64,000 bases of DNA from Protoeuglena noctilucae. Taxonomy: Eukaryota. The DNA is taken from assembly GCA_958009085.1 (NCBI GenBank), contig OY253670.1, positions 682,001-746,000 of the forward strand, in the 5' to 3' direction. A program made the position numbers and the translations under genes. The notes under the pieces were generated by a model that was given only the letters and a program-made list of their open reading frames with translations, was not told the origin of the DNA and searched no databases. Of this stretch, positions 3,201-38,498 are shown in pieces (position 1 is the first letter of the stretch; each line of letters starts with the position of its first letter).

Positions 3201-4047
3201 TCGGGACCGAACAGGGAACCGGCTAGCTGCAGGGACGTCTGCCGAAAGAGCGACGGCCGGCGGTGGACGCTGCTGCCGTGCACGGAGCCCAGGTTTGGGG
3301 GGCTCCCGGGCCCTGCGTATGGTGCGGAGGGCCGCCTCGAGTCAAGGGTCACGCGTGGCGCCCCTGTGCCAGGGATGCAAGCAGGAGCCACCACTCACCT
3401 CGCGCGCTGTCGAGATTCGACATGTTCTCTGCGTCCGCCTGCACTGCCCGCTCAATGTCCTCCACGTTGCCCATATCAAGCACGCGCTGGGACAGCGCCC
3501 GGGACAGACTGAGCCTCCCCGGGGTGCTTGTTAGCGGGCTGACGGACAGCTCCATGCTCACGCGGGCCTTGGTCGGCGCCGTGAGCTCCTCGGAGGCGAC
3601 ACCCACTTCGGATGTGCGAGCCTTGATGCTCGACCGGCGGACCTGGCAGGAGCAAAGGGATAACCATGCTCGCACGACGCTCGGCGGGACGGCCATGCGG
3701 GCGTCTCACGCACGCTGCCTCACCAGGGTCTGGAACTGCTTGTCGAGCTGCCGGGCACGCCGCTTGCCCGTCAGGTCCCTCGGCGACATCCCCGGGCTCT
3801 GGGACCCGCTTGCGCTGAAACCGCCCGGCGACCCGGGTCCCGGACTGCCACCGCGGCTCATGGCGAACGGGGCCTCGGAAGGGCCTCGCGGGCTGCCCGC
3901 GGCAGAGCCCCGTTCGTCTTGCACAGGGATGCGCAGGTGCGTCGCGGAAGACAGCGGATGCATGTACTCGGTGCGCTCTCCGGCTCCGTCGATGCCGTCT
4001 TCGCCTGCCGCGCCATCCTCCGGCGGGGCACCCTCCGGCCTCCCCAT
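222..4047 (-). CDS. Multi-exon HCN/KCNH-like voltage-gated, cyclic-nucleotide-binding-domain cation channel (both ends uncertain)
   Basis: Spliced exons give S1 'VIHPLSSFRKWWDLLIIVFILWN', 'YLKGWFFIDLVSSIPFD', S4 'RLPKLLRVLKITRLLRLLRVTKMARY', S5 'HWNACIQFLIPSMLGFP', pore 'WSLFRALAQMFSIGYG', C-linker 'YMLMRNLPLSLRARIRENYE' and CNBD 'EVYLPGDRII...MYFIKMG...GSYFGEIALL...RAADIDA'. The low-complexity N-terminal exons (3100-4050, possibly further) and the last exon are uncertain. Confidence 0.88.
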
Positions 4048-4762
4048 CCCCCACCCTGCGCAAACACGACAAGGGCGGGACCGTCATCGCGACCCTGTCC
4101 GCGCCGCCGGCCACTGCACGCCATCAATCAAGGGTATGAGCGACGCTGGAGATACGTCGGGCCGCCCGATGGGCCGTCCGCGGGCCGCAGGAGCCCCGAG
4201 TGTGTTTGCCTTGAACAATCCTTGCCGCCGGGAGTTTTCCCCCCGAAAGCCAAAACGAATCCCGTGACCTTACATGAACCATTTTGCAACAGCGGCGTTA
4301 CTTGATCAAGGCCACCGGCCCTGAGGGACGAACACACATGCCAAACGCAGGCATCGAACCACTCACCGCTGCGGCCCGGCGGCAGCCTTCTTCAACCTCC
4401 AAGATATTGAGCGAACCTTGGGAACCGCAGCCGCCTTCGCCTTTGATCCCCCTCGCGCTAGGGCCCACCGAATCGCCGCCGAGCTCAATCGCGCGCCGAC
4501 CTGACGATGACCTACAGTCCTGACTGAAAATCTGCGGCACATCATCGAGGCATTTCGGAGAAGGACGGGCGAGATGGACCCTGAGCTGACTAAACCGGTA
4601 TGACCTTGGGGTCGCCGGGACTCCACTGGCGTCTCATCGCTGCAAGGGACCCTAGATTTGCTGAGGGCGCATGCGCATGCTAGCCGGTTTGGGTGTACGG
4701 GCTGGCTGCGGGCAGTGCGCAGGGGAACGCCACATGCGGGCCGGAGGAAGCCAGAAGCCGTG

Positions 4763-7700
4763 ATGCCGGGCCAGGCGATGCCCGATGGGGGCGGGGGCGG
4801 GGAGCCCCCGCTCCGGGTCTTCCCCCCCCGCATTGAGTACGCGAGCTTTGAGACGGGGACGGTGTACAGCACCGTTGTGACCATCAAGGTGACCGCGTGG
4901 GGAGCGTGCGTCGCGTGCATTGTAATCTGACGCCTACGAAGTATCAGCGAGCGCGTGCGCTGGGCCTCCGGACACGCCCGAGAGCAGGGATGCACAGCTG
5001 CATGTCGTCGCCCATCCCTGGCCGTGGCACGCGGCTGGCGCCCGTTGGCAGACTGGTCGCGATAATACTCGTCGTGTTGATTGTTGCCACGAGCTCGCGT
5101 CGTCCAACAGGTCACGAGGCTGCGCTCCTCGTCGCGTCTCATGCCCGGAAGTGGGCGCGACGACAAATGCGGGCCGTCTTGAGTCCCCGCAGAACGTCTC
5201 GAGCAGGGCCATGATGTATTGGATCAAGCCGCCGACGATGAAGCAGTGGACGGTGAACGGGAACCTCACCACGGTGAAGCTCGCCCCGGGCCTGGAGTCG
5301 CAAGTGACCGTCTCGTTCATGTCGCGCGACGAGAAGGACATCACGGACCGCCTGCTCGTCGCAACTGAGGTGACGCGTGGGTCTGGGCGTGTAGACCGCC
5401 GCGAGCACACGGAGGCGCCCCGCATCGACAAAAGGTACCGTTCATGCAGGGCCAAGTGATCGAAATTCCGCTGCGGGCGAGCGCCCCGACGCACAAGATC
5501 GTCGCAGAGGGAGACTTGGACATCGGCGTCATCGCTCAGGAGCAGGAGACGGTGCGGAAGGTGCTGCTGCGGAACGAAGGTCCCAGGGATGCGGGCCTGT
5601 CCATCAGCTACGACAAGTCCGTGCCCGGGCTGACAGGCGAGCCCCCGCGCGAGCTTTGCCGTGGTCAGTGCCCTGCGCCCGTGGCGTGTCAGCGTCCCAG
5701 CCCCCGGCTGCCCCCGCAGTCGAGCTGACCCGGGACACGCTTGCGCCCGCGGGCAGCGGCGAGGAGAGCACCGCGGAGGTGGTGGTCACGCTGCTACCGG
5801 AGCGCCCGGGTCTCGTCAACACGCCCGTGACGGTGATGTTCGCGGACAACACGCCGCCCATCCGGATGCAGCTGGTGGCGCAGGCCGTGGTTCATGCTGT
5901 CAAGGTGACGGACGAGGACGGCATCAAGATCGACAAGCTCGCGCTCGGCACGGCCTACCTGGGCCAGCCCCTGCGCAAGACCTTCCTGCTGGCCAACGAC
6001 GGGCCCAAGCAGCTGAGGTACCGGTGCCACGTGCTGGGCGCGGCCGACGTCAAGCACCACGTGGTGAACGGGGAGGTGATGGACGAGGGTGAGCTCAACA
6101 AGCTCGGGACCCCGCCCTCGGTCAAGATCGAGCCCCAGATGGGTGCCCTGATGCCCTTCGAGCGCCAGGCCATCACGGTCGAGTTCGTGACCGAGCCCTT
6201 CAACTCCCGCAAGGGCTTCCTCTCCACCCTCAACTCCGTCGACCAGGACTCCCGCAACGAGAACTCCATCTTTTTGATCAACTTCGGCCGCTCGGCGGGG
6301 GTGCACGTCCACCAGCTCCCGCTCACCGCCCGGGCCGTCCGGCCAGGGATCAAGCTCGAGCCCGCAGAGGTGAGGAGCTTGCAATTGGTGGTCATCGGGT
6401 CACTGGCTTGCGAAGGTCTTTCTGCGGTAGCATCCGTGACGTTCGGCCCACTTCACCGCCTCGCTCCGCCCCAGGTCATCTTCCCCGACGTCACTTCTGG
6501 CCAACACATGGAGGAGGTCGTCAAGGTCCTGAACCTCGACTCGGAGCTCCCGGCTGTTGTGCACGTGCCATCGAGCGCCTATTTCCACCCCGACCAGTCG
6601 ACCATCCACCTCCAGCCGGGGCAGACGGCCACCCTCGTCGTCAGCTACGTCCCTCGGAGCATGGGCCGCCACACCGCCCAGCTGTCCTGCCGCGTGACGA
6701 CGCCGCGGGGGGCGCAGCTGCAGGAATGCGCCCTCGCGCTGTCGGGCACGTGCTTGACCTACGAGGCCAGCATGGGAACCACGAGGGGCACCCTGGGCCG
6801 CCCGCCCCTGCCGGAGGACTTCGAGCGACCGCGGGTGAGCCAGCGATGGATGGAGATGGAGAGCGCTGCCGTGGATAGGCGACTCGCGTGCTAGAGCTGA
6901 GATGGCGCTGCCCGCGCTGCCCTCCGCAGGTGTTTGCCGCGCAGCAGGACGTGGCAGTCGCGCAGATGCGGATGACGAGCAGCGTGCGCCTGCCCTTGTG
7001 GGAGAAGGAGGCCGCGGCCCGGGAGTTCTTTGCTCTGCACAGGCGAGGGACGCACGCATCTGTGGGTCCCAAGCATCGCATGGCGTAGTGCCTCACGGCG
7101 CGTGCATGACATGCGGCAGGCGGTCTCAGACCGGGCCACTGAGCGCAAGCTCTCAGCCAACCATCGCTGCATCGGGGGGTGTGTGTGTCCTGAACCCCAC
7201 GGTTGCCCCCTCTTCCGCAGGACGGCCGAGACCGAGAACGCCTTTTCCCTGGAGCAGGCCATGGCGCGCGAGGCGCACCGGCAGATGTACACGGACCTGC
7301 TGCGGTCCGGGCACCGCCACCGCAAGCGGCTGGCGCAGCCCCTCCCGGCCCCCGACGACCCCGTCTCGCTGGGTCTGCAGCAGGCAGCGGGCCTCAAGGA
7401 GCCCAAGATCCGGCTTCCGTCTGCGAACGAGCCCCTGTGGCTGCAGGAGAAGATCGTCGTGAGGCCCAAGCACCGGTGCGTGGGCGTCGCAGCGACAGGT
7501 TGATGTTTCTATGAGATTGCAAGCCGAAGCATCGACTGCTGCAACGTGACGACGGGACCGATGTGCGCAGGGCCCCCATTCCCAACGACCCCCGCCTGGT
7601 CACCAAGTGCCGCTTCAAGAGCCGCCCCGAGACGGAGAAGGAGAAGGCCGATTGCAAAAGCACGCTGTTGGGACCCGACACGGCCAAGATCGCGGCCTGC

Positions 7701-10700
7701 CGTTTCCTGGACTACGGGCAGGTGGCGCTGGGGCAGTCGGAGGCGCAGAATTTCGCCGTCACCAATGGGCTGAGCCAGAACCTGTGGGTCGAGATCGACT
7801 TGACTGAGGAGGACTGCGAGGAGCTGGCGGACATCACGCCGCGGATGCAGGTGCGGCGGGGCCCGGGACAGCACGCAGCACCTCGGCACCTGCGTTTCAG
7901 GGCTGCCAGGACCGCGGTGTTCCTGGGAGCGTAGGCGCCACACCAAACGCGCTGACGTCCTGCATCTCACGCGTGCCGCAGGTCGTGCCCCCCCGGGCCA
8001 CGGCGGCTTTCACATGCCGCTTCACGGCGACCAACCCAGGGAGCTTCGAATTTGACGTCCCCTACACGATCAACGGGCAGCGGTACACGTTCCGCGCCAC
8101 GGCGGACGTGGTCCCCGTGCGCGTGGAGCTCAACTCAGAGAAGCTGCACTTCCAGTTCTCGCCAGAGAACTGGACGGGTCGGGTGGACCAGACCCTCGGG
8201 GTGGAGAACCCGTTCGACTTCCCCGTGGTGTTCACGATCGAGCCCAGCAACAAGGTCTTCAGCGTGGAGCCCGCGCGCGGGGTGCTCGACGCGCGGGGCA
8301 AGACGACTTGCCGCGTGCGGTGGTCGCCCGTGGCCAACGACACGGTGGGCGACAACAACGGCGTGCTCACGGTGCACGTGAAGGGGGAGCTGACGCCCAA
8401 GAAGGTCATGCTGCAGGGCGAGCTGCCCGAGGGCCGCCTGCAGCTGGTGGGCGACAAGGCGATCGACTTTGACGTGGCGGCCGTGGGCGTGCCCAAGTCC
8501 AAGGTGGTCGTCCTCCGCAACGCCGCGCCCCACGAGAGCCAGTTCCAGGTCATCGTCAACCACGAGGCCCTCCGGGCGAACCCAATGTTCGGCCGCGTGC
8601 CCGCCAAGGGCTCTCTGGAGCTCGACGTCTCGCTCGAGGCGGACGAGCCGTGCGCCATCGAAGACAACATCGTCATCGAGGTCCGAGGGGGGCGGAGCAT
8701 CAAGATTCCGGTCAAGGGGAAGGGTGAGGAAGGCTTCGCACCCGCAGGAGGGCCGCCTGCAAAGCAAAGCGCTGAGCCACCGAGGCTGCAGGGCGCCGCT
8801 GTCAGAATGGGCGCTGCGCGAGCCTTGTCTGATGAGGAAATCCTGCCCCTGCGCCGCCGCCCCGCAGTCGTGGTGCCGGACATCTACGTCGAGGAGGACA
8901 AGCTCGATTTCGGGGGCGTCATCGTGGGCGGAGCGGGGAAGCTGGACCTCACGCTGGTCAACAGCAGCCCCGTGCAGGGCGCGGTGGTTTTGGACCTGAT
9001 GAACTACAACGAGTTCAGTGTCGAGCTGAGCCGGGACGCGTGGAGCTCGGACGTCTACGAGCACTGCCCGGTGCAGGTGAGGGCCTGGCACTGCCACGAT
9101 GTGCGCGGTACGTGGCACAGGCTAACGACGCTACATGAGGGCCAGTGGTACATGGAACAAGCACCGGCGAGGATCGTCAAGAGACCGCGCGGTGTTTTCT
9201 CGGCGCAGGTGGTGTCCAGCAAGGGTACGGAGCGGTCGGCGGAGAGCGTGGGGTCGGAGCGTGGTGTGCGCCGCCGCTCCTCGGTGGTCAACCAGCTGTT
9301 CGCGGCGGGCAGCAAGTACCGCATCACGATCATGGGCCACTCCAAGCTGTGCATCGTGCTCGTCTACAAGCCCACGTCCGTCGGGGGCGCCGAGCTCACG
9401 CTGGGCCTCTCCGACGGCAAGGGCCTGACCCCGCCCGAGGGGTCCCTCATGGCCAAGCGCATCCCGATGACCATGACGGGACTCGAGCCCAAGCTCATCC
9501 TGAGCGAGACGGTCGTCGACTTCGGCAAGCGCGTCGTGGTGCGCGGCTCGAGCGTCAACCCCTACACCTACACGCTCCACCTCGCGAGCCGCACCTCCCA
9601 GCCCCTGCCCTTCCGCTTCGCCGTCTCCGAGCTCTGCCCGCCCGAGGACCTCGGCGTGTTCAGCTTCGAACCCCAGGAGGGCACCCTGAACCACGACACG
9701 CCCCTGGCGGTCCGTGTGCTCTTCTTGCCCCGGGAGTCCAAGACCTACTCCCTCCGAGTGCCGCTCTACGCCAACCACGACTTCGTCAACAAGTACCTCG
9801 AGCTCACGCTGAGCGGCACCGGATCCATGCCCAGGCGAGCGAGCGAGACGCGACTCACACTCTGTGCCATGACAGGCGCCCGTTCCATGTAGGCACTCTG
9901 ATTCCAAGATGCAAGCCCAAGCTCCACGCACCCTCTTTCCCTACCCAAGCCCTTCCGTGGCACAAGCCCCCGCGTAGCTCAGCCACGCCTGTATGCAACA
10001 CCGCTCCATCCCACGCACGCAGGCTGCTCTTCGATGTGGAGGAGGTCCTGCTGCCTCCCGTGCCCCTGGGCATCCGCGCGTCCGCGCAGGTCATGGTCAT
10101 CAACGACGGCTACGACAACCTCGATCTCAAGGTCAAGATGCCCGTGGATGAAGACAAGGTGCCCATCACGGTTGACTTCCCAGATGGCACGATGATCGGC
10201 GTCGCCAAGGAGCGCCTGGCCCTGGTCGTGTCCTTCGTAGCGTCCAAGCCGACGTCCTTTACGTCCAGCATCGAGCTCCTTGACTTTGAGGGCGCCAGGC
10301 GAGGGGCGCGGGGATCGCTGGCACACGATAACTTACATGCAGATGCCGACCCGGGACTCTGCAGACGCCGGCACCTACAGCTGTTACGTTCTGGGGCCAA
10401 GCTGTGCGCATCTGACCTCTCACACCCCTTCACGTGTGTCCTTGTGCAGGTACAAGCTTCCCATCAGTGGCGTGAGCGACAACAGCGTGTTGACGGCCGG
10501 CGAGTTCCTGCACGTCAACCACAAGGTCATCGGCGTGGCGAGGAAGACGCCCAGAGATCCCCCGAGGCTCGCCATGGCTGCGTTCGCGGACCTGGTGCTG
10601 GTGAGAGGGAGCGCGCGATGCCAAGGGGGTTGGTCGAAGAGCCATGCAAACGTGGCATGTCCATGGCCCTCAGCTGGGCCCAGCGGCCTAGCCGGGGCCG

Positions 10701-13700
10701 AAGCCCTTTTGCTGCGCATGGTGTCATTGGTAAACATCGCGAAAGCACCTCCTCTCTCCGCAGTCGGCCGACCTGAAGAACGTGGGCCCGCTGGAGCCAA
10801 ACCGGTTCCTGGCGTGCTTCATCAACGCCACGACCATGCTCGGGCCCTTCAACAATTTGCGAGAGGAGAGCTTGGCGTCCAAGGGCCGCATCCTCGTCGA
10901 AATCGTCGAGCTGCTGTCCGGGAAACCAGGTGCCATGCGCAGCGTGCATGGTGTCTCATGCCATGTGCACCTCCCCAGTGCCTCGCAAAGTGTCTTGCTT
11001 GCCGATGTGCATCTCCAGCACCTCGCAAGGTCTGCATTATCGCCAAGCATGCATCTGACAAACGAGACTGCCCCCCCGCAGTGCCCGGCAAGGCCGTGTC
11101 CCTCCCTGCGAGCCGCCGCGAGGCGATGATCGCGCTCCTGAGTCAGTACGAGAAACTCATCCAGTTCCTCGCCTCCCTGGGCGCCCTGCTCAACACCACC
11201 AAGCCAGAGTTCCTGCTAGACACGGATGACTTTGCGCGCCTGTTGTCGATGCGGGAGGTGCAGAGCGGGCAGGACCAGGAGTCGGCACGGGACGCGCGCG
11301 TGGGGCTCACCTTCTGGGAGCAAGTCGAGACCAGCTTCGGGATGGTGTCGGTGCGGGCGTGGAACGCCGTCTTCGCGCAGGTGGCCAAGGTCCTGGTGGT
11401 GTCACGCTGCACGCCCAAAGCCCTGCGCCAGATGGGCCTGCCCGTGACCAAGGAGTTGGAGAAGATGTGGTCCAGCAGCGACGTGTACAGGTGATTGCAA
11501 GCGAAGCTCCCTACCTCGTACCGGCTCGCGCGAACAGGCCATCGAGTGACCCGCCGCCATGCGCCTGCCAATGCCCTCGTCGATGTCCCCCACGCAGCCT
11601 CAACGAGATGGTCCTGCTGTACTGGGCCCAGCACTGGCTCTCTAAGACGTTCCCCGAGTCGAGCGAGATCTTGGGCAACTTCAACACCGACTTCCGCAAC
11701 GGCCGTGCCCTCTTCGCCATCCTCGCCTCCCACTGGCCGAGCCTTGGGGCCTTCCGCGACCGCCTCCTGCCGGACGACAACAACCACGAGACGCGGCTGC
11801 ACAACGCGCAGGTCCTGCTCGAGATGGTCCGGCAGCTGGAGCTGCCCATGACCTTCACGGCAACTGAGCTACTGGAGGCGAATGTGGACGAGGTCGTCTT
11901 GCTCCTCGCCTACCTGTTCCAGACGCTGCCGCAGCTGGCGCCCAGGACGACCATCGAGTTCTCCGCCAAGCTCGGGGAGGTCCAGACCAAGCACGTGGAG
12001 CTCCACAACCCCTCGCCCATGGCCGTGTCGTATTACGCCAGGCTCGAGGGCCACAGCGACTTCGCCCTCACCACCACCACCGTGTTCCTGGAGCCCAAGG
12101 CCACCGTGCACTTCCCCGTACAGTGCAAGAGCACGATTTCGAAGCCAGTCCAGGGATTCCTCGTCCTCTCCTCCCGAAGAAACGGCACAGGTGCGGCGCA
12201 CGCGTGGCTCGCCATCGCGCAAACGCAGGTGCCTGAGGAGTCTGTTGCGCCCCATGCGCCTCTCTTATCAGCCCTCCTTCCTGCGCTTTGCGTCACTTCT
12301 CCAACCACCATCTCGCCCTTCTCTTGCAGCCCATGGCGCCACCCTGGTCTTTGCTCTGGAGAGTCAAGTTAACACGACCATCCCCGTCCAAAAGGCTTCG
12401 GTCGAGGGCACGACGTACCAGATGGAGGTCGCGGAGGCGGAGATCCGCAACCCTTTCCCGGGAGACTGCGACTTCACCATCACACTGGAGCAGTACATGC
12501 AAACAGGTGAGGGTGCGCGGGGTGACATTGCACCAAAGCAGTACATGCAGAGCGGCGAGGGCCATGCGGGGTCAAGGTGTGCAGTCGCAGTGCGGCTGTG
12601 CCCCCTTGGACCAGCCATTGACGTGTCTGTTCGAGCTTTGCCCTCTACGCAGATGGCCGCCGCAAGAAGACCAAGAAGAGCAACCGCTTCGGGGGTGGGC
12701 GGGACGCGAACGGGGACGAAGGCAACGCCACGAGCGGGGCCGCAGCGGGAGGCATCCCGCCAGAAGCGAGCCCCTCGAGCAGCGCGACGCACCGGCTGTT
12801 CAACCCCGACGCACGCACTGTCATCGCCTCGGGCGTGCCCCTCTCGGTGGCGCCCGAGCGCTACCCGCACGCCTTCGGCTGCGAGCGGCAGCGTCTGCGC
12901 CTTCGCCAGGGCGCCGTGGACCGCCTGGACCTCGCCTTCCTGCCCTTTGTGCCTGGGGTGCACATCTGCCACATCGTCCTGGAGGACGCCACGTTTGGCA
13001 AGTTCCGCTGCGAGGTGGTCGGAAACGCCAAGCTCCCAATGCCCGTGGCCAAGCTGACGTACCAGTGCGACCAGGAGGGCTCGGTGGTGCAGGACATCTC
13101 GATCCCGTTCGCCAACACGCTGTGCGAGGGCGCTAAGCGACTCTTCCTGGAGCGCCACCCGTTGGCCAAGGACGACAAGCAGGCAGGGCGTTTGAAGGCC
13201 CTGGACGCCTTCAAGGGCGAGCCGCTGGTCTACACGGTCGAGCAGGCCAACCAGTTCGTGAACGTGCCGCGGGTGGTGGTGCTCAAGGGCGTGAAGCAGC
13301 CCGACAAGCAGCGGGGCGACGAGGAGGCCGCGTCCAGCTCCACCAACAGCATCCGCGTCGAGCTGAACCCCAAGGGCGCGGGCCTGTACCCGGTCCGCGT
13401 CAAGCTCACCTCGGTCAATGACGTCCGCGTTTACGACCTCACGTTCGAGGCCACCAAGGCCGGCATGGTGTCCAAGCTCGAGTTCGACTGCCCCGCGCGG
13501 CATCAGGTCCAGCAGGAGATCCCGCTCGTCAACCACAGCGACAAGCCCCTGCAAGTGCGCGCCAACATCCAGGGCGAGACGTTCTTCGGCCCCGCGCAGC
13601 TCACCATCGACCCAGGCCTCACGCTCATGTACCCGCTCTCCTGCCGCACCAACGCTCCCGGGAACTACTACGGCAAGCTCGAGCTGCAGGCGAGAGTCGG

Positions 13701-29506: not shown

Positions 29507-30355
29507 TCACTGCTCCGCACCCTGACCCCGCCTCCGCTCAATCTCCTGCGCCCACGCCTTCCCCGTCTCGGTGAGGAAGCGACCTCGCGTCGAGTCAAAG
29601 AACTCGGACAGGTCCATGGATTGGGACTGCTCGTACTCCATCGCCTGCAATAGCGCATGAGATGGGCTGCCGTGATGGACTGCCACCCTCCGCCCCTCCT
29701 GAGCCCCTCTCGCCAGTGCTTTCACGCTGCTCTCACCTGCAATATCATCTCCAACTTGTCCAGATCTTTCACAAAATGGCTCTCTGCGGTCTTCTGGTCC
29801 TCGTACTCCTGCCACAAGCGCTGCACCTCCTCAGCCGCCTCGTTGCGCCCACCCAGCATCGTTCTGATCTCCGACATGGCCTCCTGCTCTGCATGGGCCG
29901 TCGCCGAGCGGGCCATTACGCCCCGGCGCGGGCGGAGGGGGCGGCACGCGGAGCGCTCCCTCGACACGCATGGCTCGCCTCTCCGATACTTCTCCTCCTT
30001 GCTGACGGGGTCGTCGGGAGTGATGTCCCCCACGATCGCTTCCGCGAGATCGTGCGCGAGCGCCACCTTCATCGCGTGCGTGGTGTCAATCCCGCTGTCC
30101 TTGGCCACCATCGCCATCATCGCTGGGAGGGCAGCCGGGCGAGCACCGCCGGTCCATGCCAGCGCATGTTGGCACATCATAGAGCGTGTCTCACTAAGCA
30201 TCCTCCTCACCCATGCGGTACATGTGATCAGCGATGCTCTCCGGGCCCTTGACCCCACGGCGCACCCATCCCGTCCTCTTCGTCGCCTTGAGCTTGAAGA
30301 TGAGGTGGAAGAAGTCGATCGCTTGCACGGCATTGGGACCTCGCGTGGTGGCCAT
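29507..30355 (-). CDS. HDDC2: HD-domain 5'-deoxynucleotidase, HDDC2/YfbR family
   Basis: '[28 protein letters not shown]', '[18 protein letters not shown]', 'EEKYRREQEAM', 'LWQEYE...[18 protein letters not shown]'; four exons. Confidence 0.92.
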
Positions 30356-30757
30356 GCCTGAGCAGTGCGTGAAAGTCCTTGCCGAGGGCGCACGACGCAG
30401 CGGTCGCTGAAAGGGCTGGCAGTGAAGCGCGATGCGTTCTTCAGACATCTGGTTGCAAGACCATGTGGTAATGGCGGCCGTGGGGTGCGCAGGGCGATGA
30501 ATTAAGCGTCTCCCGCTTGACGCGCGAGAATGCACAGCACGTCTGGCGGTGTCGGAGTTCGCGATGCTAAACACGCGCCCACACACGCTCCTCCGTTCTC
30601 TCTGATCGACGTGAGTTGCGGACGTTGCGACCATGGTCGCCGGATGCACGTTGCGCGCAGGGCCACCTCTTTGAGGGCGTGCGGCTGGTTGCTACCGTCT
30701 GCCGGTGGCTTGGCGGCCCCGTCATGCTACCCTAAGCGATCACTGCTGCTGGCTGCG

Positions 30758-33700
30758 ATGAAGAGCGCTTGTTTCGGGCCCGCTTGGAGGGTGCCGAGGA
30801 ACGGGCAGTCTACAACTTTGCTGCGGAGATTTCAGCCGGTTTCGCGGCGTCCAGTCGCCAATATCGGATGCCGATCGTTTGCAACTGCCCGAGGGCGCGG
30901 CGGCGAGGTGGCGGATCTCGCGGCGGCCCGGCCGAAGGGCGACTCGCCCGACCTCTTGCCGGACCTTGCGCTGGGCCGACCCAAAAGCGAGGCGCCGTGG
31001 TCGGACGTCCTCAGCTGGGTCGTCTTTTCGGACCTCCATCTCAGCAAGAGGAGCCTGCCCGTATGTCTCGAAATTCTCCGCCTCGTCCACGCCACAGCGC
31101 GCGAGAGAGGAGCAGGTGCGCTGGGGTCGTCGTCTCACAGTGCGCTTTCCGACTGCAGAGTCCCCTCTCTGATCTCTGTGCACATTACTGCCCCACCATG
31201 TTTCCCCTCCCCACGCAGGAGTAATCTTTCTGGGCGACCTGTGGCACGAGCGCGGCGCACTGCCGGTCGAGCCGCTGAATGCGGTGCTGGATGAGGTCGC
31301 GTCCTGGCAGGTGCCGAGCCTGTGGCTCGTCGGCAACCACGATCAGGTGTGCAGCAGACACGCCAGTGCAGCAAGGAGCAAAGACCGACTGCCATGCTAC
31401 GTGACGCGCCCCACCAAGTGCTCACCCCACCCGCAGGTCACGCTGTCGGGGGAGCAGCACGCGCTCCTCCCGCTGCACCTCTGCAGCGATCGCGTGCACG
31501 TCTTTTCCAGGCCGGCAATCTTCCTGGGTGATGCTCGTTGCGCCATAGCTTTGGTCGGTCATCGATGTCGTCCCTTGCAGTCACCCCCGCAGATGTGAGA
31601 ACGCCACACCCTTCGGTGCCCTGCAGATGCCCTGTGGCTGCCGTACCGCAAGGACGCCTCGGAGCTTCAGCAGGCGATCGAGGCCGCCCGGCTCAGCGGC
31701 ACCAGTCTTCGTGCCGTCATGGCTCACGTCGACGTCACGGGGGCTGCCTATAACGACACCTGCCAGGCTCGGGTGGGTTGCGGTCTGCCAGCCGAGCTAG
31801 CTCTGGCCAGCCGTCCATCCGCTCATCCGTGCTCGCTCGCTAATCGCCCACGCCCTTCTCCGATTGCAGGGCGGCCTGCCACCCTCCCTCTTCCCTCGGG
31901 ACATCCCCCTCTACACGGGCCACTACCACAAGCCCCACAGCGTCCCCGGATCGGACCACATCGTGTACGTGGGGTCGCCGTACCAGGTCACCAGAAGCGA
32001 GGCGGGGCAGCAGAAGCGGTTCCTGCTGCTGGACCGACACTTCCAGCGCAGCGGTGACGTGTCCATTGACGTGGGGCCGCGGCACTTTCGCGTGCGCGTC
32101 CCCGCAATGGACGCTGGCGCGGATGGGGACGCCGGCGCTGGGCTGGCGTCGGCGCTGGCGGCGCTGGGGCCCAAAGGAGGGGCCCTGCGTGCCGGTGACC
32201 GTGTGCGGGTTGAGCTACCCGAGGCCCCGGACAGGGAGGCGGCCCGCACGCTGCAGGCGGCTCAGAAGCGGGGTGTGTTTGTGGAAGTGGCCGTCGACCC
32301 GCGGGAGTTGCGCCCACGCATCCAAGAAGCCGAGGTGACGGCGGTGGGGCCTCGCATGCAACGGCGTTTCTGGCAAGAATGCCGGGAGTCAGATGGGCAG
32401 GAGAGGCCCAGGGTGGGCGGCCGTCGTGATGCCGCGCATGTTGCGCCACCCTCGCAGTGCATGCTTCCCGAGCAGCTCCTGAGTGAGTTTGCCGCCCAGG
32501 GTGGGATGTCTGCGCCGGCGCTCCGCTTGGCCCGCGAGATACTGGCGGACAGCGTGGCGGCGCGAGGCACGTCGAACCATGACCCGGTGGACTTGGACCT
32601 CTACAGCGTCGAGATGGAGGGGTTTGGGCCATTCCTGCAGCCGACGAGGTACAGCTTCCGACTCGGTGGGCTGCGGATGGTGTCGGGAGACAACCGGGAC
32701 GACCTGCAAGCAGAGAGGTGCCAGCGGCAGCCACATATGCTCCCTGCTGCTGGCGCTCGCAGTCATTTGAGGAGTGGATTAAACTTGTTCCTTCCTGTTT
32801 CCTGCTTGCAGCAACGGTGCGGGGAAGAGCACGCTGGCCCTGGCGGCCCTGTGGGCCTTCACGGGTTCCACCGACGCCCGGGACACGCTCACACGGGACC
32901 TGCAGCGCGCCGAGGTGGTGCACGACGCGGCGAGCGGGGCGGCCGTCGTGGTCGAGGGCACCGTCAACGGGGTGGCCTTCTGTGTGCGCCGGGAGAGCCG
33001 TGCCCGGGGATCCAAGGATGGCGGGCCCAGGAAGAGTGCGGGTGAGTGGAGGCGTGGGATCGCTGTAGGCTGTGACGCTGTAAAGCTCAATAGGCGGGAC
33101 GTGGCTGGTTGGTTTGCATACGGCCAGGGCTCGGTCTACCGTGGAGTAAGCTTGCTAGATGATCGTGCTGCGTGCGTGTTTGCAGGATCGGGGTTGACGC
33201 TGGAGCTGGGCGGCGAGGACAGGACGCAGGCCACACAGCAGCTCACACAGGCCCTCATCGACGCGACGTTCGGGACGGCGTACCTCCCCGGGGCGGTCTT
33301 CATGACGCACGGCTCGGTGCAGTTGCTGCTGCAGGCGACCGACAAGGAGTTCCGGTGCGGCGGGGATTTCTGACTCGCATAGTTTGTACATGAAAGGCGG
33401 CGCTGGCTTCATGAGCCCCACTGGGCGTGCCATCGTGCTTTGCAGGGACGCGCTGGGCCTGGTGGTGCAGCTGGACCTCTGGGACTCTGCAAAGGCAGTA
33501 GCACGAAAGCGTCTGCAGGCGGCAGAGCGTGAGCTGGCTGCCCAGGCGGCCCGCGAGGAGCAGGCGGCGGCGGGGGCGGCGCGTCTAAGGTCGCTCGTCG
33601 ACCGGGAGAGAGAGCTCAGGTGGGCTTGAGGTCAAACGCCAGCGGTGGATGCCCATCAGAGCACGTTCGCAGCCTAGTCGGCGAGTGCTCGTCTGTTGGC

Positions 33701-36182
33701 GCCAGCGCCAGAGTCCCACCTCTGCAGCTGAGCTGATGCGGGTCTTTGGTCGCAGGGACGAGTGGGGTGCGCGGCACCGTCGGCAGCGCGCACAGCAGCT
33801 GGAAAGGGCGGAGGCAGTGGCTGAGTGTGCACTGGACGCTGTGCGGTCGTGCGGGGAGAGGCATGCGGCCCTTGCAGCGACGTTGGAGGGGCTTGCGGCA
33901 GACCTGGAGAGGGTCGCACAGAGCGCCGCGTCGGTCGCGAACACGGCGGCTCTGGGCGGACCGGCAACTGCGGAGGAGGGCCTGCTGGACTCGTACCAGC
34001 AGACCGTGGCGCCCCTGCGAGAGCGGCTGGCCCAAGCAACCGAGGCGGCGAGGGAGGCAAGGGCGCGGTGGGCAGAGGCGGCGTCTGTGGCAGACGTGCG
34101 CCGCGGGGCGCTGCTGGCGCTTCGGAGAAGGCTGCAGGAGTACGTGAGCCTGGGCCAGGCTGCGAACGGCGAGGCAGTGACGACGGGTGCGGGCGTGGGG
34201 CGCCGGGACGGGCATTCGGTGGCTGCTGGACGACAAGCGAGCGAGGTTCTCACTGCCGAGGGCAGGGAGGCTACGAGTTCTGCCGTGCGGGACCACGAGC
34301 ACGGGGACGCGTGGGTGTGCGACCGCTGTCTCCAGCCCATCGACGAAGAGATGTACTCGGCGACTATTGCCGACTTGCGTGCCGAGGTTGCTGCGGAGGA
34401 GGCGCGGATGCAGGAGGCAGAGGTGCGTGTCGCTGTGCGCTGTGTGCCACCCTGGCTGCCTCAGAGTCATGTGCACTAAGCGAGGGTGGAGGGTTCACAA
34501 GTAACGCGTCCAGAGTGCGTCTGCTGGGCTGCAGGGCATAGCCACGGCGCTCAAGCGAGAGTGGACGGAGAGGGAGGGCCAGGTGCAGGCGGCAGAGGCC
34601 GAGCTGGCACGTAGAGACGAGGAGCTCGGGAGGCAGGTCGCTGCGGCTCGTCGAGCGCGGGAGGAGGAACAGCGCAGGGCGGAGGAAGCGCGGAGGGCTG
34701 CGGGGCAGGCACACGCTACGGCGTCGCGTGCTGTGTCCGGGGCGTGGGCCGAGGGCCGCCGGTCGGGCCGAGCAGCGGCGGAGTTGGGAGCCATGGCGGT
34801 GGAGCTGTGCCATCGCGTGCGGGAGCTGACTGCGCCTGGCCGCCCGGGGACGCAAGGGGAGGACGTCGCGTTGCTGGAGACCCTGCTGGCGAAGGTGGCA
34901 GAGGCGGCGCCGAGGGATGGCGAGCTGGGCCTCGAGGAGGGTTTAAACTTTACCAGCGGCGTCAGGGACCCGTGGGACAAGGCGCCGTCAGCGGCGTCAA
35001 AGGCCCAGCCAGACGGTCGACAGATGCCGGCGGACCTGGGCGCGTTGGAGGAGGAAGCGCAGCGCGTGGCGCAGCGGGCAGCGGGCGTGCAGGGTCAGGC
35101 GCGCCTGGCAGCAGAGGAGTCGACCCGAGCCCTCAAGTATTTGGGAGAGGTGTCCGATTGCGTGCGGCAGCTCGCCGCGGTGGTGGACCATAACCCTCAC
35201 GGCCCCGTGGTGGAAGCATATGAGCGGCAGCTGGACGACGTGGAGGGCAGCTTGCAGGAGTTGCAGCGGGCGTGCGACGCGCTTCAGGCTGACGTGGGCC
35301 TGCTCCGGTGAGCTCTCCCTGTGATATCAGTGCCGCTGTGAGTCGATGTCGGGAGACCTGGCGTCGACCACGGCTCTTAGCCCCGATTCGTCGCCCTTCG
35401 CAGGGAGGTGGACGGAGCCTTCTCGAGGAAAGGCGTGCAGGCGTATCTGATGGAGTCCGCAGTGGCGGAGCTTCAGGACACGACACAGGGGTACCTGAGT
35501 CGGCTCAGCGGGAGGCTGTCAATCCGACTCACGACCGTCAGGTGACGCCCTGCGCTGCTCGTCGGCTTGGCGGCACTCTCACCCGCGCCTGCCTGGACGC
35601 CCGCGCCGTGCCACCACGCAGCGAGCGCAAGACCCCGCGGCGGGGGGCTGTCCGAGGCGAAGAGGACGGGGCGGAGATGGTGGAGCGTGTCGAGAAGGCC
35701 GTGACGTTCTGCCCGCCCTCGTCGACCTCCGGGGCGACGGTCACGCGATCCGTGGCGCAGCTCAGCGGTGGCGAGCGCATGCGCGTCGCGCTGTGCCTCT
35801 CCCTCGGCATGATGGATCTCTTGAGGTGCGTTGGCAGGGTGCGTGGCGTGGGATGACAGGCATTCCGTTGCTGGGTGGTCTCAGCCCCTTGCCGCTTGCA
35901 TCCAGCCGCACCACGGCTGGCCGACGCCTGGCACCGTGCAGGTGTCGGAGCCGGCTGGCCTGCAACGTCCTGGTGATGGACGAGGTGCTGCAGAGGATGG
36001 ACGCGGAAGGCGTTTCGCAGGCTTTGACGCTTCTCCGCAGCGTTGGCAAGGAGACGGTCCTTCTCGTGGGGCAGCCGGGTGGCTTTGGTTCAGAGGTGGA
36101 TGCGGTCGACACGGTCGTCAAAGAGGGAGGCTCTTCCTGGGTTGTCGTGGGGTCTAGATTTGAATCCGTTCTATCTCTTTGA
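30758..36182 (+). CDS. Fused SbcD/Mre11-type metallophosphoesterase nuclease plus SbcC/Rad50-type SMC ATPase, with N-terminal presequence
   Basis: Nuclease motifs 'VVFSDLH', 'IFLGDLWH', 'LVGNHD', 'VMAH', 'YTGHYHKPH', 'YVGSPYQ..SEAGQQK'. These are followed by 'SVEMEGFGPF', Walker A 'SNGAGKST', a long coiled coil with central 'CDRC' zinc hook, ABC signature 'LSGGERMR' and Walker B 'VLVMDEVLQRMDAEG'; TGA ends at 36182. Confidence 0.88.
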
Positions 36183-36302: not shown

Positions 36303-38498
36303 TCACGTCCCCGCGTGTGCTGCAAGCGCCGCGTGTGCGTCTGCGTCGTCGGTCCCTGCGGCCTTGACCCTTCGGTTGGCGGCGTTCATGCGCACGAACA
36401 GCGCCCGCAGCACGCGCTCTCTCTGCTCCCACGACAGGTCGGCGAAGTCCACGCCCCCTGCGAGCACAACTCTATGCGAAGTCTCAGATCGCCAGGCAGG
36501 CCATAGACAAGAGCTTGCAATGACCTGCAGTGACGAGCTCAAGTCTTTGGGCGGTGGCATTCACCTCCCACGGCCTGTGCGGGCTTGGACGCCGCGACTC
36601 CGGGTGCGGACGTCTGACTGCTCGACCGCGACGCCCACCCCGTGACCTGCACCCGGGACGCCCCGCCTGCCCCGTCCCCCTTCTGCGCCTCCGTCTCCGC
36701 TTGCCCCTGTGCCTCGCGGATGGCGGCGATGAGGAACTTCTCCACATCGGAGCGCTGCTTGAGGACCTCCAAGGCCAAGGCGCGGATGGTACGGGCGTCC
36801 GCCTCTGCCGCCTGCGCACCACGGGCACAACACACAGTGCATCCTCAGATCACGTCGCCCGGCGTCCAGCGACCGCGTGACGACAGCGCAGCGCGACGAC
36901 AGCGCAGTGAGTGGTCAGTCACCTCGGCGCGCTCGGACAGGGCGCGGTTCTCGTCGATGAGGGCCTGCTCAGCCCGGATGCGGTCGCGGCGGCCCTCCTG
37001 CCGCAGCACGTCGACCTCCTCCGACAGCGCCAGCAGCTCCCGCTCCAGCTCGTGCATGCGGTCCCGCGCCCGCGCCAGCTCCTTGCCCTGCCGCACCCGC
37101 ACCTCCCGCTCCATGCGCTGCTGGTCCACCCGCAGCGTTCCCACCACCTGCGCCTGGGCCACCGTGCCCTGCAGCTCCCGCGCCCGCGCCCGCAGCGTCT
37201 CCAGATCCCCCTTCAGTTCCGCGTTCTCCTTCACAAGCCGCTCATTCTGTGCCAGGATACCGTGGATGCGGGCGGGCAGGCGCTCGTCCAACTCCACCTC
37301 CAGCTGCCCCACTGCGCGCGAGGACGACCGCGCCCACGTCTCACGATCAGCTCGAGCCCCATCGCTGCCGAAGGGCCCGCAGGCAAGCGTGCGGCGCTGT
37401 CGTTTCTGGCACACTCGCCTGCCTCCTGGACCTTGGCCTTCAAGTCGTCCCGCATCTTCAAGCTCTGCTTGATGTACTTGCGTTCCAAACGCATGCCCTG
37501 AGGTCGAAGTGGGACCGCGCGATCGTCACGGCTGCGGCACTGCCTGCGCTGCCTGGCCAGCGAGCGTGGGTGGCTGTCTGCCGCACCTGCGCCATCTTTT
37601 CCAGCTTCAGCGCCTCGAAATCGCCCCGCATCCGAGCCAGCTCCGTCTCGAGCCGTTCCTTGTCCTGTTTGAAGGTCTCCAGCTCCGCAATCGTGTCCTG
37701 GAGACTCCGAATGTGGCTCTGCAAGGGCGGGCGGGCGAGCGCTAGGTTTGGCCCGCTCCACAACGGCCCCCGCGCTCCCCGCGTCTCGCTCCCGCCACCC
37801 GACGTCATCTCACCTGCAAATCCTGCTCCCTGCGCTGGAACGCCCGCTTCAGCTGGTCCTCGTGCTCCGCAAAGCCCGTCTCCAGCTCCTTCACCTTTTT
37901 CCCCAGCTGGTCCTCCTTGCGTTGGAGCTGCTTCTGCACGGAGAAGCGGGAGCGCACACGTCACCCATCATAGCAACCATGTGCGCGTCCACGGGCCGAC
38001 TCCGCGGCTGCTGCGCGCCTGCAGCTCCTCAATCTCCTCGGCCTTGCGCTGGTTGTCCCAGTGGAGATACTCCAGCGCTTGATACTGCTCGTCGAGGTCC
38101 TTCTGATGGTTTTCTTGCAGCTGCTGATGCTCCTTCGCGACCTTAAAGAGCTCCGCCTTGGCCCGCGCGAGGGCCATGCGCTTGCGCTGGTTCTCGGCGA
38201 GAATGTGGATTTGCGTCGTGGTGAAACGGCCGGCGGCAACCACATCGGGATCCAACGGATTAGCCCCTGCGAAGCGGCGAGGTGCTCGAGGCCATATCTT
38301 CACTGGACGAAACACTGCGCGCACCGGCATGCTCGGGCACGAGCGCGTGCTGGTCGGGAGCCCTGCGGCCCTGCAGCGCAGCGCATCACCTTCCACATCG
38401 AACTGAGTAAGCTTGGATGGCTTCTTCTTCTTCTTTTTCGTGGAGTTCGCCGACATGGGCTTGGGAGGAAGGATGCCCTGGATGTCCACCGCCGCCAT
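36303..38498 (-). CDS. BBOF1: Basal body orientation factor 1 (BBOF1/CCDC176)-like coiled-coil protein
   Basis: Lys-rich N-terminus 'PPKP...KKKKKK', long coiled coil, 'LALEVLKQRSDVEKFLIAAI' and C-terminal 'VDFADLSWEQRERVLRALFVRMN', which resembles the BBOF1 terminal motif as I recall it. Confidence 0.72.

Follow-up and report, generated by a model that had tools for sequence, protein, structure and literature searches.

A spliced gene joining a nuclease and an ATPase

The stretch of DNA analysed here, 64,000 nucleotides (nt) from Protoeuglena noctilucae (contig OY253670.1 of assembly GCA_958009085.1, positions 682,001 to 746,000 of the forward strand) and hereafter called the window, contains on its plus strand, between positions 30758 and 36182, one gene whose predicted product joins a Mre11/SbcD-like nuclease and a Rad50/SbcC-like ATPase, in that order, in a single polypeptide. 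We set the exon borders from the reading frame, the GT and AG ends and tblastn homology to the closest relative, P0002, and obtained 14 exons separated by 13 introns of 80-144 nt, all of them GT...AG (Table 1). The joined coding sequence (CDS) is 4044 nt long, has one terminal stop and gives, in this spliced model, a product of 1347 amino acids (aa). Compared with a profile of 67 family members from which the window protein had been excluded, this product gave one continuous match of 1063 bits, far beyond chance, spanning profile positions 47-1160 and model residues 59-1340. The G+C content (GC) at codon positions 1, 2 and 3 is 0.74, 0.52 and 0.81 in the CDS, and 0.64 in the introns, in a window whose G+C lies at 63-72% throughout. 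The gene is intact and belongs to the nuclear genome of a green alga.

One of the introns, of 123 nt, lies in frame between the two halves of the protein, and the junction frame stays open with or without its splicing. It coincides with a 41-residue gap in the alignment to P0002, and its GC by codon position (0.78/0.61/0.68) is without the GC bias at third positions (GC3) of coding sequence; from these features it is probably an intron. Another intron, at 32718-32811, divides the Ser codon that opens the Walker A motif.

Conservation was read from an alignment of 31 members, the window protein included. Few or no substitutions occur among them in the phosphoesterase motifs, Walker A, the signature, Walker B and the hook, and none of these elements is missing from the window protein. 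All five phosphoesterase motifs that characterize Mre11/SbcD are there, complete with the Asp, His and Asn residues that bind metal, as are the Walker A, LSGGE, LVMDE and D-loop elements of Rad50/SbcC. The original prediction, made from the letters of this DNA, had placed the nuclease and SMC-ATPase motifs that it named in one spliced gene, and every one of them could be located on the plus strand, in the 1347-aa model. The hook motif, C-x-x-C-x-Q-x-I, hardly varies between family members; in the window protein the putative zinc hook CDRC stands mid-way between arms of about 236 and 285 residues (lengths taken from the motif positions), whose composition and homology suggest an antiparallel coiled coil, and the exon that bears it gave no match to a Pfam hook domain. 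For the C-terminal lobe of the ATPase, the relative P0004 could be aligned to solved Rad50 chains.

Table 1. Features of the fusion gene, its neighbours and an additional module of relatives. Nucleotide positions are those of the window, and residues those of the spliced model unless a relative is named.
Feature	Positions	Strand	Residues	Basis
Whole gene, start to stop codon	30758..36182	+		Reading frame, GT/AG ends, homology
Exons 1-5	30758-31115, 31219-31346, 31437-31527, 31627-31772, 31870-32334	+
Exons 6-10	32458-32717, 32812-33041, 33186-33354, 33446-33619, 33756-34422	+
Exons 11-14	34535-35307, 35404-35541, 35622-35825, 35942-36182	+
Probable in-frame intron, 123 nt	32335..32457	+		GT...AG ends, gap against P0002, GC by codon position
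N-terminal extension	30758..31015	+	1-86	Composition; putative start codon
Mre11/SbcD-type phosphoesterase and capping domain	31016..32316	+	87-390	Motifs, phage-type profile, fold of a relative
Motif I, SDLH	31028-31039	+	91-94
Motif II, GDLWH	31233-31247	+	125-129
Motif III, GNHD	31332-31343	+	158-161
Motif IV, (A)H in MAHVD	31719-31733	+	224-228
Motif V, GHYH	31918-31929	+	258-261
YVGSPYQ	31966-31986	+	274-280
Two-helix segment between capping domain and ATPase (inferred)	32467..32568	+	400-433	Alignment
ATPase N-terminal lobe	32590..33473	+	441-625	GFGPF, Walker A, Q-loop position
GFGPF	32620-32634	+	451-455
Walker A, SNGAGKST	32716-32833, intron-split	+	483-490
Q-loop position, His here (VFMTHG)	33296-33313	+
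Putative coiled-coil arms, antiparallel	33474..35296	+	626-861 and 866-1150	Composition, homology
CxxC zinc-hook motif, CDRC	34318-34329	+	862-865
ATPase C-terminal lobe	35297..36179	+	1151-1347	Motifs
Signature, LSGGE	35761-35775	+	1247-1251
Walker B, LVMDE	35970-35984	+	1278-1282
D-loop, QRMD	35991-36002	+
H-loop region, LLVGQPGG	36060-36083	+
HD_3-domain gene (YfbR/HDDC2-like 5'-deoxynucleotidase)	29725-30691	minus		Pfam, 88.9 bits
Glu/Arg/Leu-rich coiled-coil frames, tail-to-tail with the fusion gene	36848-37967	minus		Weak Cnn_1N match, 17 bits, below cut-off
Extra module of stramenopile relatives			P0115 (Ectocarpus) ~165-195; P0106 (Nitzschia) ~84-120; P0201 (Thalassiosira) ~66-105; P0078 ~45-85

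That both enzymes belong to one chain is best seen at their junction. The frame is open from stop to stop over 31801-33045, and the exon 31870-32717, translated without splicing of the in-frame intron (282 residues), carries GHYH, YVGSPYQ and GFGPF with no stop between them, as had been predicted. A search with this junction exon against longer proteins returned 19 relatives, full-length proteins of Marchantia, Riccia, Closterium and Chlamydomonas sp. UWO 241 among them, and in full-length relatives a single chain matches the Pfam families Metallophos, AAA_23, SbcC_Walker_B and SMC_N. The closest relative, P0002, is 51% identical to the window protein over 1247 aligned positions and is encoded on a metagenome contig (L020, 1420-5751) by an uninterrupted open reading frame (ORF) of 4332 nt, so that the fusion in that alga is independent of any splicing model. 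The ORF of L020 holds an 87-nt stretch with intron-like ends, between WV and VFSDLH, which the gene caller read through. The intron load thus differs sharply between fairly close algae, with 13 introns in the window gene against at most a few, in frame, in L020.

Could the fusion be an artefact of the gene model, the two halves being adjacent genes transcribed separately? The junction exon alone has no Pfam match, which points that way. On the short exons of the window Metallophos reaches 15.4 bits (from a single 42-residue exon, with a cut-off of 21.5) and AAA_23 18.4 bits, both below cut-off, and this weighs against the reading preferred below. The artefact explanation is nevertheless scarcely credible. 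It has to contend with the absence of any stop between GHYH and GFGPF in 31801-33045, with fused relatives in many annotated genomes, with the one continuous ORF of L020, and with a family profile that matches the window product as a single stretch. The prediction that one polypeptide carries both enzymes therefore holds, on the open junction exon, the full-length fused relatives and the L020 ORF.

The ATPase half departs from the canonical pattern at two positions, and this weighs against a conventional enzyme. At the Q-loop, where most members have FHGQ and E. coli SbcC has SQGQ, the window protein and P0002 (FMTH) carry His instead of the glutamine typical of the Rad50/SbcC family. At the H-loop, all family members share a Gln (Q1182 of P0004) and the window protein reads LLVGQPGG, without a nearby His; two alignments to solved Rad50 chains put the canonical H-loop His either on this Gln or two residues later. 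Because of the Gln to His change in the Q-loop and the absence of a His from the H-loop region, the ATPase chemistry may differ or be weak. Taken further, the same two departures might mean that the ATPase has decayed in this lineage, leaving an ATP-independent nuclease, a DNA tether or an incipient pseudogene. We hold this to be very unlikely, since Walker A, the signature, Walker B, the D-loop, the hook and all the nuclease ligands are intact, and the 4044-nt frame remains open over 14 exons with a GC3 of 0.81. Moreover, the Q-loop change is common to a relative only 51% identical and so has been kept under selection, and T4 gp46, which is functional, has Thr in the aligned position.

Membership of a known fusion family

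The original prediction presented the fusion as the best candidate for an undescribed system, and in this it was mistaken. Yoshida, Claverie and Ogata (2011, Virol J 8:427; PMC3175470) had already reported Mre11/Rad50 fusions, from six eukaryotes, five bacteria, one phage and Mimivirus. Within the Results and Discussion of that paper, a well-supported "moss-diatom-prasinophyte group" is placed outside the canonical clades, the hosts of the fusions are said to retain canonical Mre11 and Rad50, a viral origin with lateral transfer is proposed, and organelle targeting is not raised. Judged by its sequence, the window gene is a member of this moss-diatom-prasinophyte group, in a new host. In a literature search covering papers apart from their supplements, we found on plastid or algal SbcCD or Mre11-Rad50 fusions only this article and papers citing it for giant viruses, and from the years after 2011 no functional or localisation study of the algal or plant fusion proteins. 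A 2026 prasinovirus paper (PMC12906663) concerns a different Rad50-like viral gene.

The window protein has the domain order of the group (nuclease, capping domain with helix-loop-helix, short linker, Rad50-like ATPase with coiled coil) as well as its host range, and it clusters with moss, prasinophyte and diatom members, outside bacterial SbcCD. It differs from them in its host, a high-GC, intron-rich green alga nearest to P0002 and Chlamydomonas sp. UWO 241, and in having His for the Q-loop Gln. The alignments and trees were built apart from the four sequences of the 2011 paper's own set; a Physcomitrium protein (P0025) is among the matches of the search that follows.

We searched for the range of the family with the nuclease part of the Marchantia protein, against proteins of similar total length, and considered the best 120 of the 226 matches. 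The organisms named among these 120 are liverworts, mosses, a lycophyte, streptophyte and chlorophyte algae, and stramenopile algae (brown algae, a diatom and a chrysophyte), that is, every named host is a plastid-bearing alga or a non-seed land plant. No seed plant is named among the same best 120. The lycophyte protein is 65% identical to the Marchantia query, so an angiosperm orthologue should have ranked high.

Kinship with viral and phage proteins

In the original prediction the compact nuclease was held to be of the phage or bacterial kind, rather than a nuclear Mre11, and the profile searches bear this out. The relatives score far below cut-off on the models of the cellular proteins: 24.8-41.2 bits on NCBIfam TIGR00618 sbcc (cut-off 478.5), 21.5-29.5 bits on TIGR00619 sbcd (cut-off 77.65), and likewise on the cellular Rad50 model. 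On the phage families they score E 1e-27 to 3e-50 for phrog_77 (Marchantia, 170 bits) and E 5e-21 to 2e-29 for phrog_100 (Marchantia, 104 bits). A profile built from 13 unfused phage-type nucleases matches the nuclease half of the window protein at 193.9 bits, and neither the window pieces nor six full-length relatives matched Mre11_DNA_bind (Pfam PF04152) at E <= 0.1. Eukaryotic nuclear Mre11-Rad50(-Nbs1) shares the superfamily fold and the zinc-hook principle with the window protein and differs in carrying this Mre11_DNA_bind domain.

When 1.84 billion representatives were searched with a profile, a further fused set emerged, of about 950-1050 residues, in which the match starts at residue 2-7 and which lies on metagenome contigs of up to 523 kb. 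Three fused relatives are on IMG/VR contigs, namely L022 (310 kb), L024 (372 kb) and L023 (80 kb, estimated 13% complete), and on L024 the fused gene (4025-7360, minus strand) adjoins a eukaryote-type RNA polymerase Rpb2 gene (8001-11147, plus strand), which is a giant-virus hallmark. From IMG/VR membership, the contig sizes, the Rpb2 neighbour and the completeness of L023, we read this fused set of about 1000 residues as giant-virus proteins. In blastp, the nuclease half of the window protein scores 127-173 bits on 14 fused giant-virus-type proteins, 92-99 bits on the unfused phage nucleases of L001 and L002, 89 bits on Brochothrix phage A9 gp116, and 37 and 35 bits on E. coli SbcD and T4 gp47, respectively. 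The ATPase half does not discriminate among the giant-virus-type, unfused phage and A9 groups.

The giant-virus-type proteins (L022, L023, L024 and clusters P0299-P0353) have the same fused architecture, CxxC hook and phosphoesterase motifs as the window protein, and are 28-36% identical to it in the nuclease half. They are without the N-terminal extension and without introns, have GDFFD as motif II against GDFWH in the family, and show a clear H-loop His (FITHE). By its description in the 2011 report, Mimivirus R555 appears to be related in kind to them. The unfused phage pairs (PHROG 100/77; L001, L002; and A9 gp116/gp117, Herelleviridae) share FSDLH, FLGDFWHxR, PGNHDQV, GHYHK and YVGSPYQ with the family and have the same gene order, inside replication-recombination modules, but they are two genes with short coiled coils (ATPases of 560-694 aa). 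The complete 110-kb phage genomes L001 and L002 encode an unfused nuclease (324 and 323 aa) followed by an ATPase (659 and 694 aa). Their modules (L001 455-8933, L002 241-9585) consist of DNA polymerase, an unknown gene, a UvsX-like recombinase, the SbcD-like nuclease and the SbcC-like ATPase, with a 185-aa ORF between the last two in L002. T4 gp47/gp46 is also unfused and much more distant (35 and 37 bits).

Trees of the two halves, computed separately, place the eukaryotic fused proteins, among them those of Ceratodon, Marchantia, Ostreococcus and Nitzschia, in one group, with an SH-aLRT support of 94 for the nuclease half, 97 for the ATPase half and 99 in a further tree. This group joins the giant-virus-type fused proteins at 95 in both half-trees, and the unfused phage pairs, A9 and T4 fall outside the fused groups in both. 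Within the eukaryotes, stramenopiles are sister to the green lineage and the streptophytes stand together (98, ATPase tree). These are quick maximum-likelihood trees with SH-aLRT support only, a midpoint root and no eukaryotic or archaeal Mre11/Rad50, which must be set against what they suggest.

Since each half separately pairs with viral-type proteins that are already fused, with the unfused pairs outside, the gene was probably already a fusion at the time of its transfer, whether from virus to alga or from alga to virus, and one fusion event, predating the algal gene, is probably common to the viral and the algal proteins. The idea that a two-gene operon was transferred and fused afterwards is, for the same reason, probably wrong.

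Two other origins were considered. For a cyanobacterial or endosymbiont source, prokaryotes were scanned by pattern, with each species represented by one genome, and this gave 8 loci, of which 2, in uncultured bacteria, were good and 0 cyanobacterial; the scan used an alignment of unfused phage-type nucleases and two peptide patterns, and is weak evidence of absence. A recent viral insertion was rejected on the 13 host-type introns, the host GC and GC3, and the grouping of the streptophytes in the tree.

Predicted fold of a relative

We obtained an AlphaFold model of the relative P0131 (445 residues, from a 74-row alignment), which covers the presequence, the nuclease, the capping domain, two helices and the first ATPase strands; that it is a model of a relative and not of the window protein lessens its weight for the latter. 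Its pLDDT averages 83.1 and falls below 50 over residues 1-49, which are disordered. A Foldseek structure search with this model gave 174 matches at E <= 0.001, the top ones spanning 330-397 aligned columns. The best solved match is E. coli SbcD in SbcCD head complexes (7yzp_B, E 3.9e-13), followed among the top matches by Thermotoga and archaeal Mre11; human and fungal Mre11 rank lower. In a library of viral structures, phage recombination nucleases match best, and giant-virus fusion proteins are among the further matches.

A nuclease fold, a capping domain and a C-terminal helix-loop-helix are all predicted in P0131. Its helices lie at 354-364 and 369-387 in the model, and the Foldseek alignments of 381-397 columns extend into the C-terminal part of the SbcD chains of the head complexes. 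By alignment, residues 400-433 of the window protein would form the helix-loop-helix that anchors Mre11/SbcD on the coiled coil of Rad50/SbcC. Only about 10 residues separate this two-helix segment from the first ATPase strand, and linkers of 9-12 residues are argued to be sufficient in fusion proteins, in the 2011 paper's treatment of them (PMC3175470).

Possible organelle targeting

The first 50 residues of the window protein contain 10 Arg or Lys and 1 Asp or Glu. Such a composition recurs in the family: 28 of the 31 eukaryotic members have 47-419 residues ahead of the first conserved motif, and in most of these extensions the first 50 residues are basic and acid-poor. In all 14 giant-virus-type proteins the nuclease domain begins at residue 1-12, and the unfused phage nucleases begin directly at the domain. 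Because only the eukaryotic members carry a basic N-terminal extension, import into an organelle appears the most likely explanation, and targeting to an organelle, the plastid most likely, is plausible from the N-terminal sequences. A hydrophobic core followed by F or L is the pattern of plastid import across the endoplasmic reticulum. Among 11 stramenopile N-termini that we inspected, those of Thalassiosira P0201 and Ochromonas P0213 have a strongly hydrophobic, signal-peptide-like start and then F or L.

Several points weigh against organelle import. We judged localisation from composition and by reading the N-termini by eye. In-frame ATGs also occur upstream of the putative start codon, at about 30530 and 30644, and 3 of the 31 eukaryotic members have a short extension. 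Only the two stramenopile N-termini just named, of the 11, are clearly bipartite, those of the brown algae being moderately hydrophobic, and several of the inspected stramenopile models are partial or of doubtful start.

The same enzyme could instead be nuclear or cytosolic, a second break-processing nuclease or an anti-viral or anti-foreign-DNA nuclease acquired from a giant virus, with the extension a disordered tail or an artefact of the gene models. The nearest fused relatives do lie on contigs of giant-virus size, the 2011 report (PMC3175470) invokes virus-mediated transfer with no mention of organelles in the sections cited above, and our literature search brought up no localisation study. 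Yet a basic, acid-poor extension that recurs in 28 of 31 members of distant lineages and is missing from all 14 viral-type relatives is hard to accommodate in this explanation, as are the two signal-peptide-like starts of the stramenopiles and the fact that the hosts named among the best 120 of 226 matches are all plastid-bearing. We regard a nuclear or cytosolic enzyme as unlikely.

Mitochondrial or dual targeting, rather than an address specific to the plastid, seems to us more doubtful still. In its favour, algal plastid and mitochondrial presequences look alike, the extension of the window protein is Arg-rich, and dual targeting of proteins that maintain organelle DNA is common in plants. 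However, the starts of the Thalassiosira and Ochromonas proteins fit plastid and not mitochondrial import, and the family members named among the best 120 of 226 matches are all from plastid-bearing lineages.

Proposed mechanism and significance

Our preferred reading, which we think probable though far from assured, is that the window gene encodes a single-chain, viral-type Mre11/SbcD-Rad50/SbcC enzyme of the 2011 fusion family, acting as a dimeric end and hairpin nuclease and imported into an organelle, with the plastid favoured. The gene structure, the motifs, the family membership, the nuclease fold of a relative and the phylogenetic position were computed; activity, dimerisation and above all localisation are what we infer.

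The presumed mechanistic model is E. coli SbcCD (6s6v, 7yzo, 7yzp), with its ATP-dependent cleavage of hairpins and blocked ends. Among solved structures it comes nearest to the part of P0131 that comprises nuclease, capping domain and helix-loop-helix, but it consists of two chains, and in sequence it barely resembles the window protein (37 bits for SbcD, nothing significant for SbcC). If the fusion protein works as SbcCD, Mre11-Rad50 and T4 gp46/gp47 do, it would form dimers held together both by the nuclease domains and, at the far ends of the coiled coils, by the zinc hooks. The two ATPase heads would close on DNA when ATP binds, and the nuclease, with its two metal ions, would then cleave hairpins, blocked ends and the ends of double-strand breaks, making them ready for recombination. 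Each nuclease would be tethered to its own ATPase, because the helix-loop-helix anchor lies about 10 residues ahead of it. After import into the organelle, plastid favoured, the protein would start RecA-dependent repair or recombination-dependent replication.

A wider proposal, which we advance only tentatively, is that this virus-derived fusion is the missing DNA-end and hairpin-processing nuclease of plastids, possibly also of mitochondria, in algae and non-seed plants. It might have been captured already fused from giant viruses, or been shared with them, early in algal evolution, then have gained a transit peptide and been lost toward seed plants. If so, it would be one more viral recruit beside the organellar phage-type RNA polymerase, primase-helicase and DNA polymerase.

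A 2020 review (PMC6981420) states, where it deals with double-strand-break resection in plant organelles, that the proteins responsible "have not yet been identified". If the fusion is addressed to an organelle, it is a concrete candidate for break resection in algae, bryophytes and a lycophyte, and its absence from the seed plants, as far as the organisms named among the best 120 of 226 matches go, would pose the question of its replacement there. The protein is also a natural single-chain form of a complex that structural biologists must assemble from two proteins.

Genomic surroundings and minor observations

The neighbourhood of the gene gives no bearing on its function. The HD_3-domain gene stands head-to-head with the fusion gene, with about 350-400 nt between the likely start codons, an arrangement that suggests a shared bidirectional promoter. 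Two antisense ORFs on the minus strand within the fusion gene, 31991-33154 and 33588-34460, were considered as genes and rejected; they have no Pfam match and we read them as chance frames of high-GC DNA.

Two features were seen in relatives. In the protein of Chlamydomonas sp. UWO 241 (P0009), the C-terminal 150 residues repeat the Walker B/D-loop segment and the next strand, the two copies being separated by low-complexity His/Thr runs, which is probably an artefact of the assembly or of the gene model. The stramenopile members have an extra small module between the presequence and the nuclease (Table 1), with the pattern G-x-x-V-x-L...G-x-V...GGW[WYF]-x-V; it had no match in Pfam and looks like a small beta-barrel domain that binds DNA or protein.

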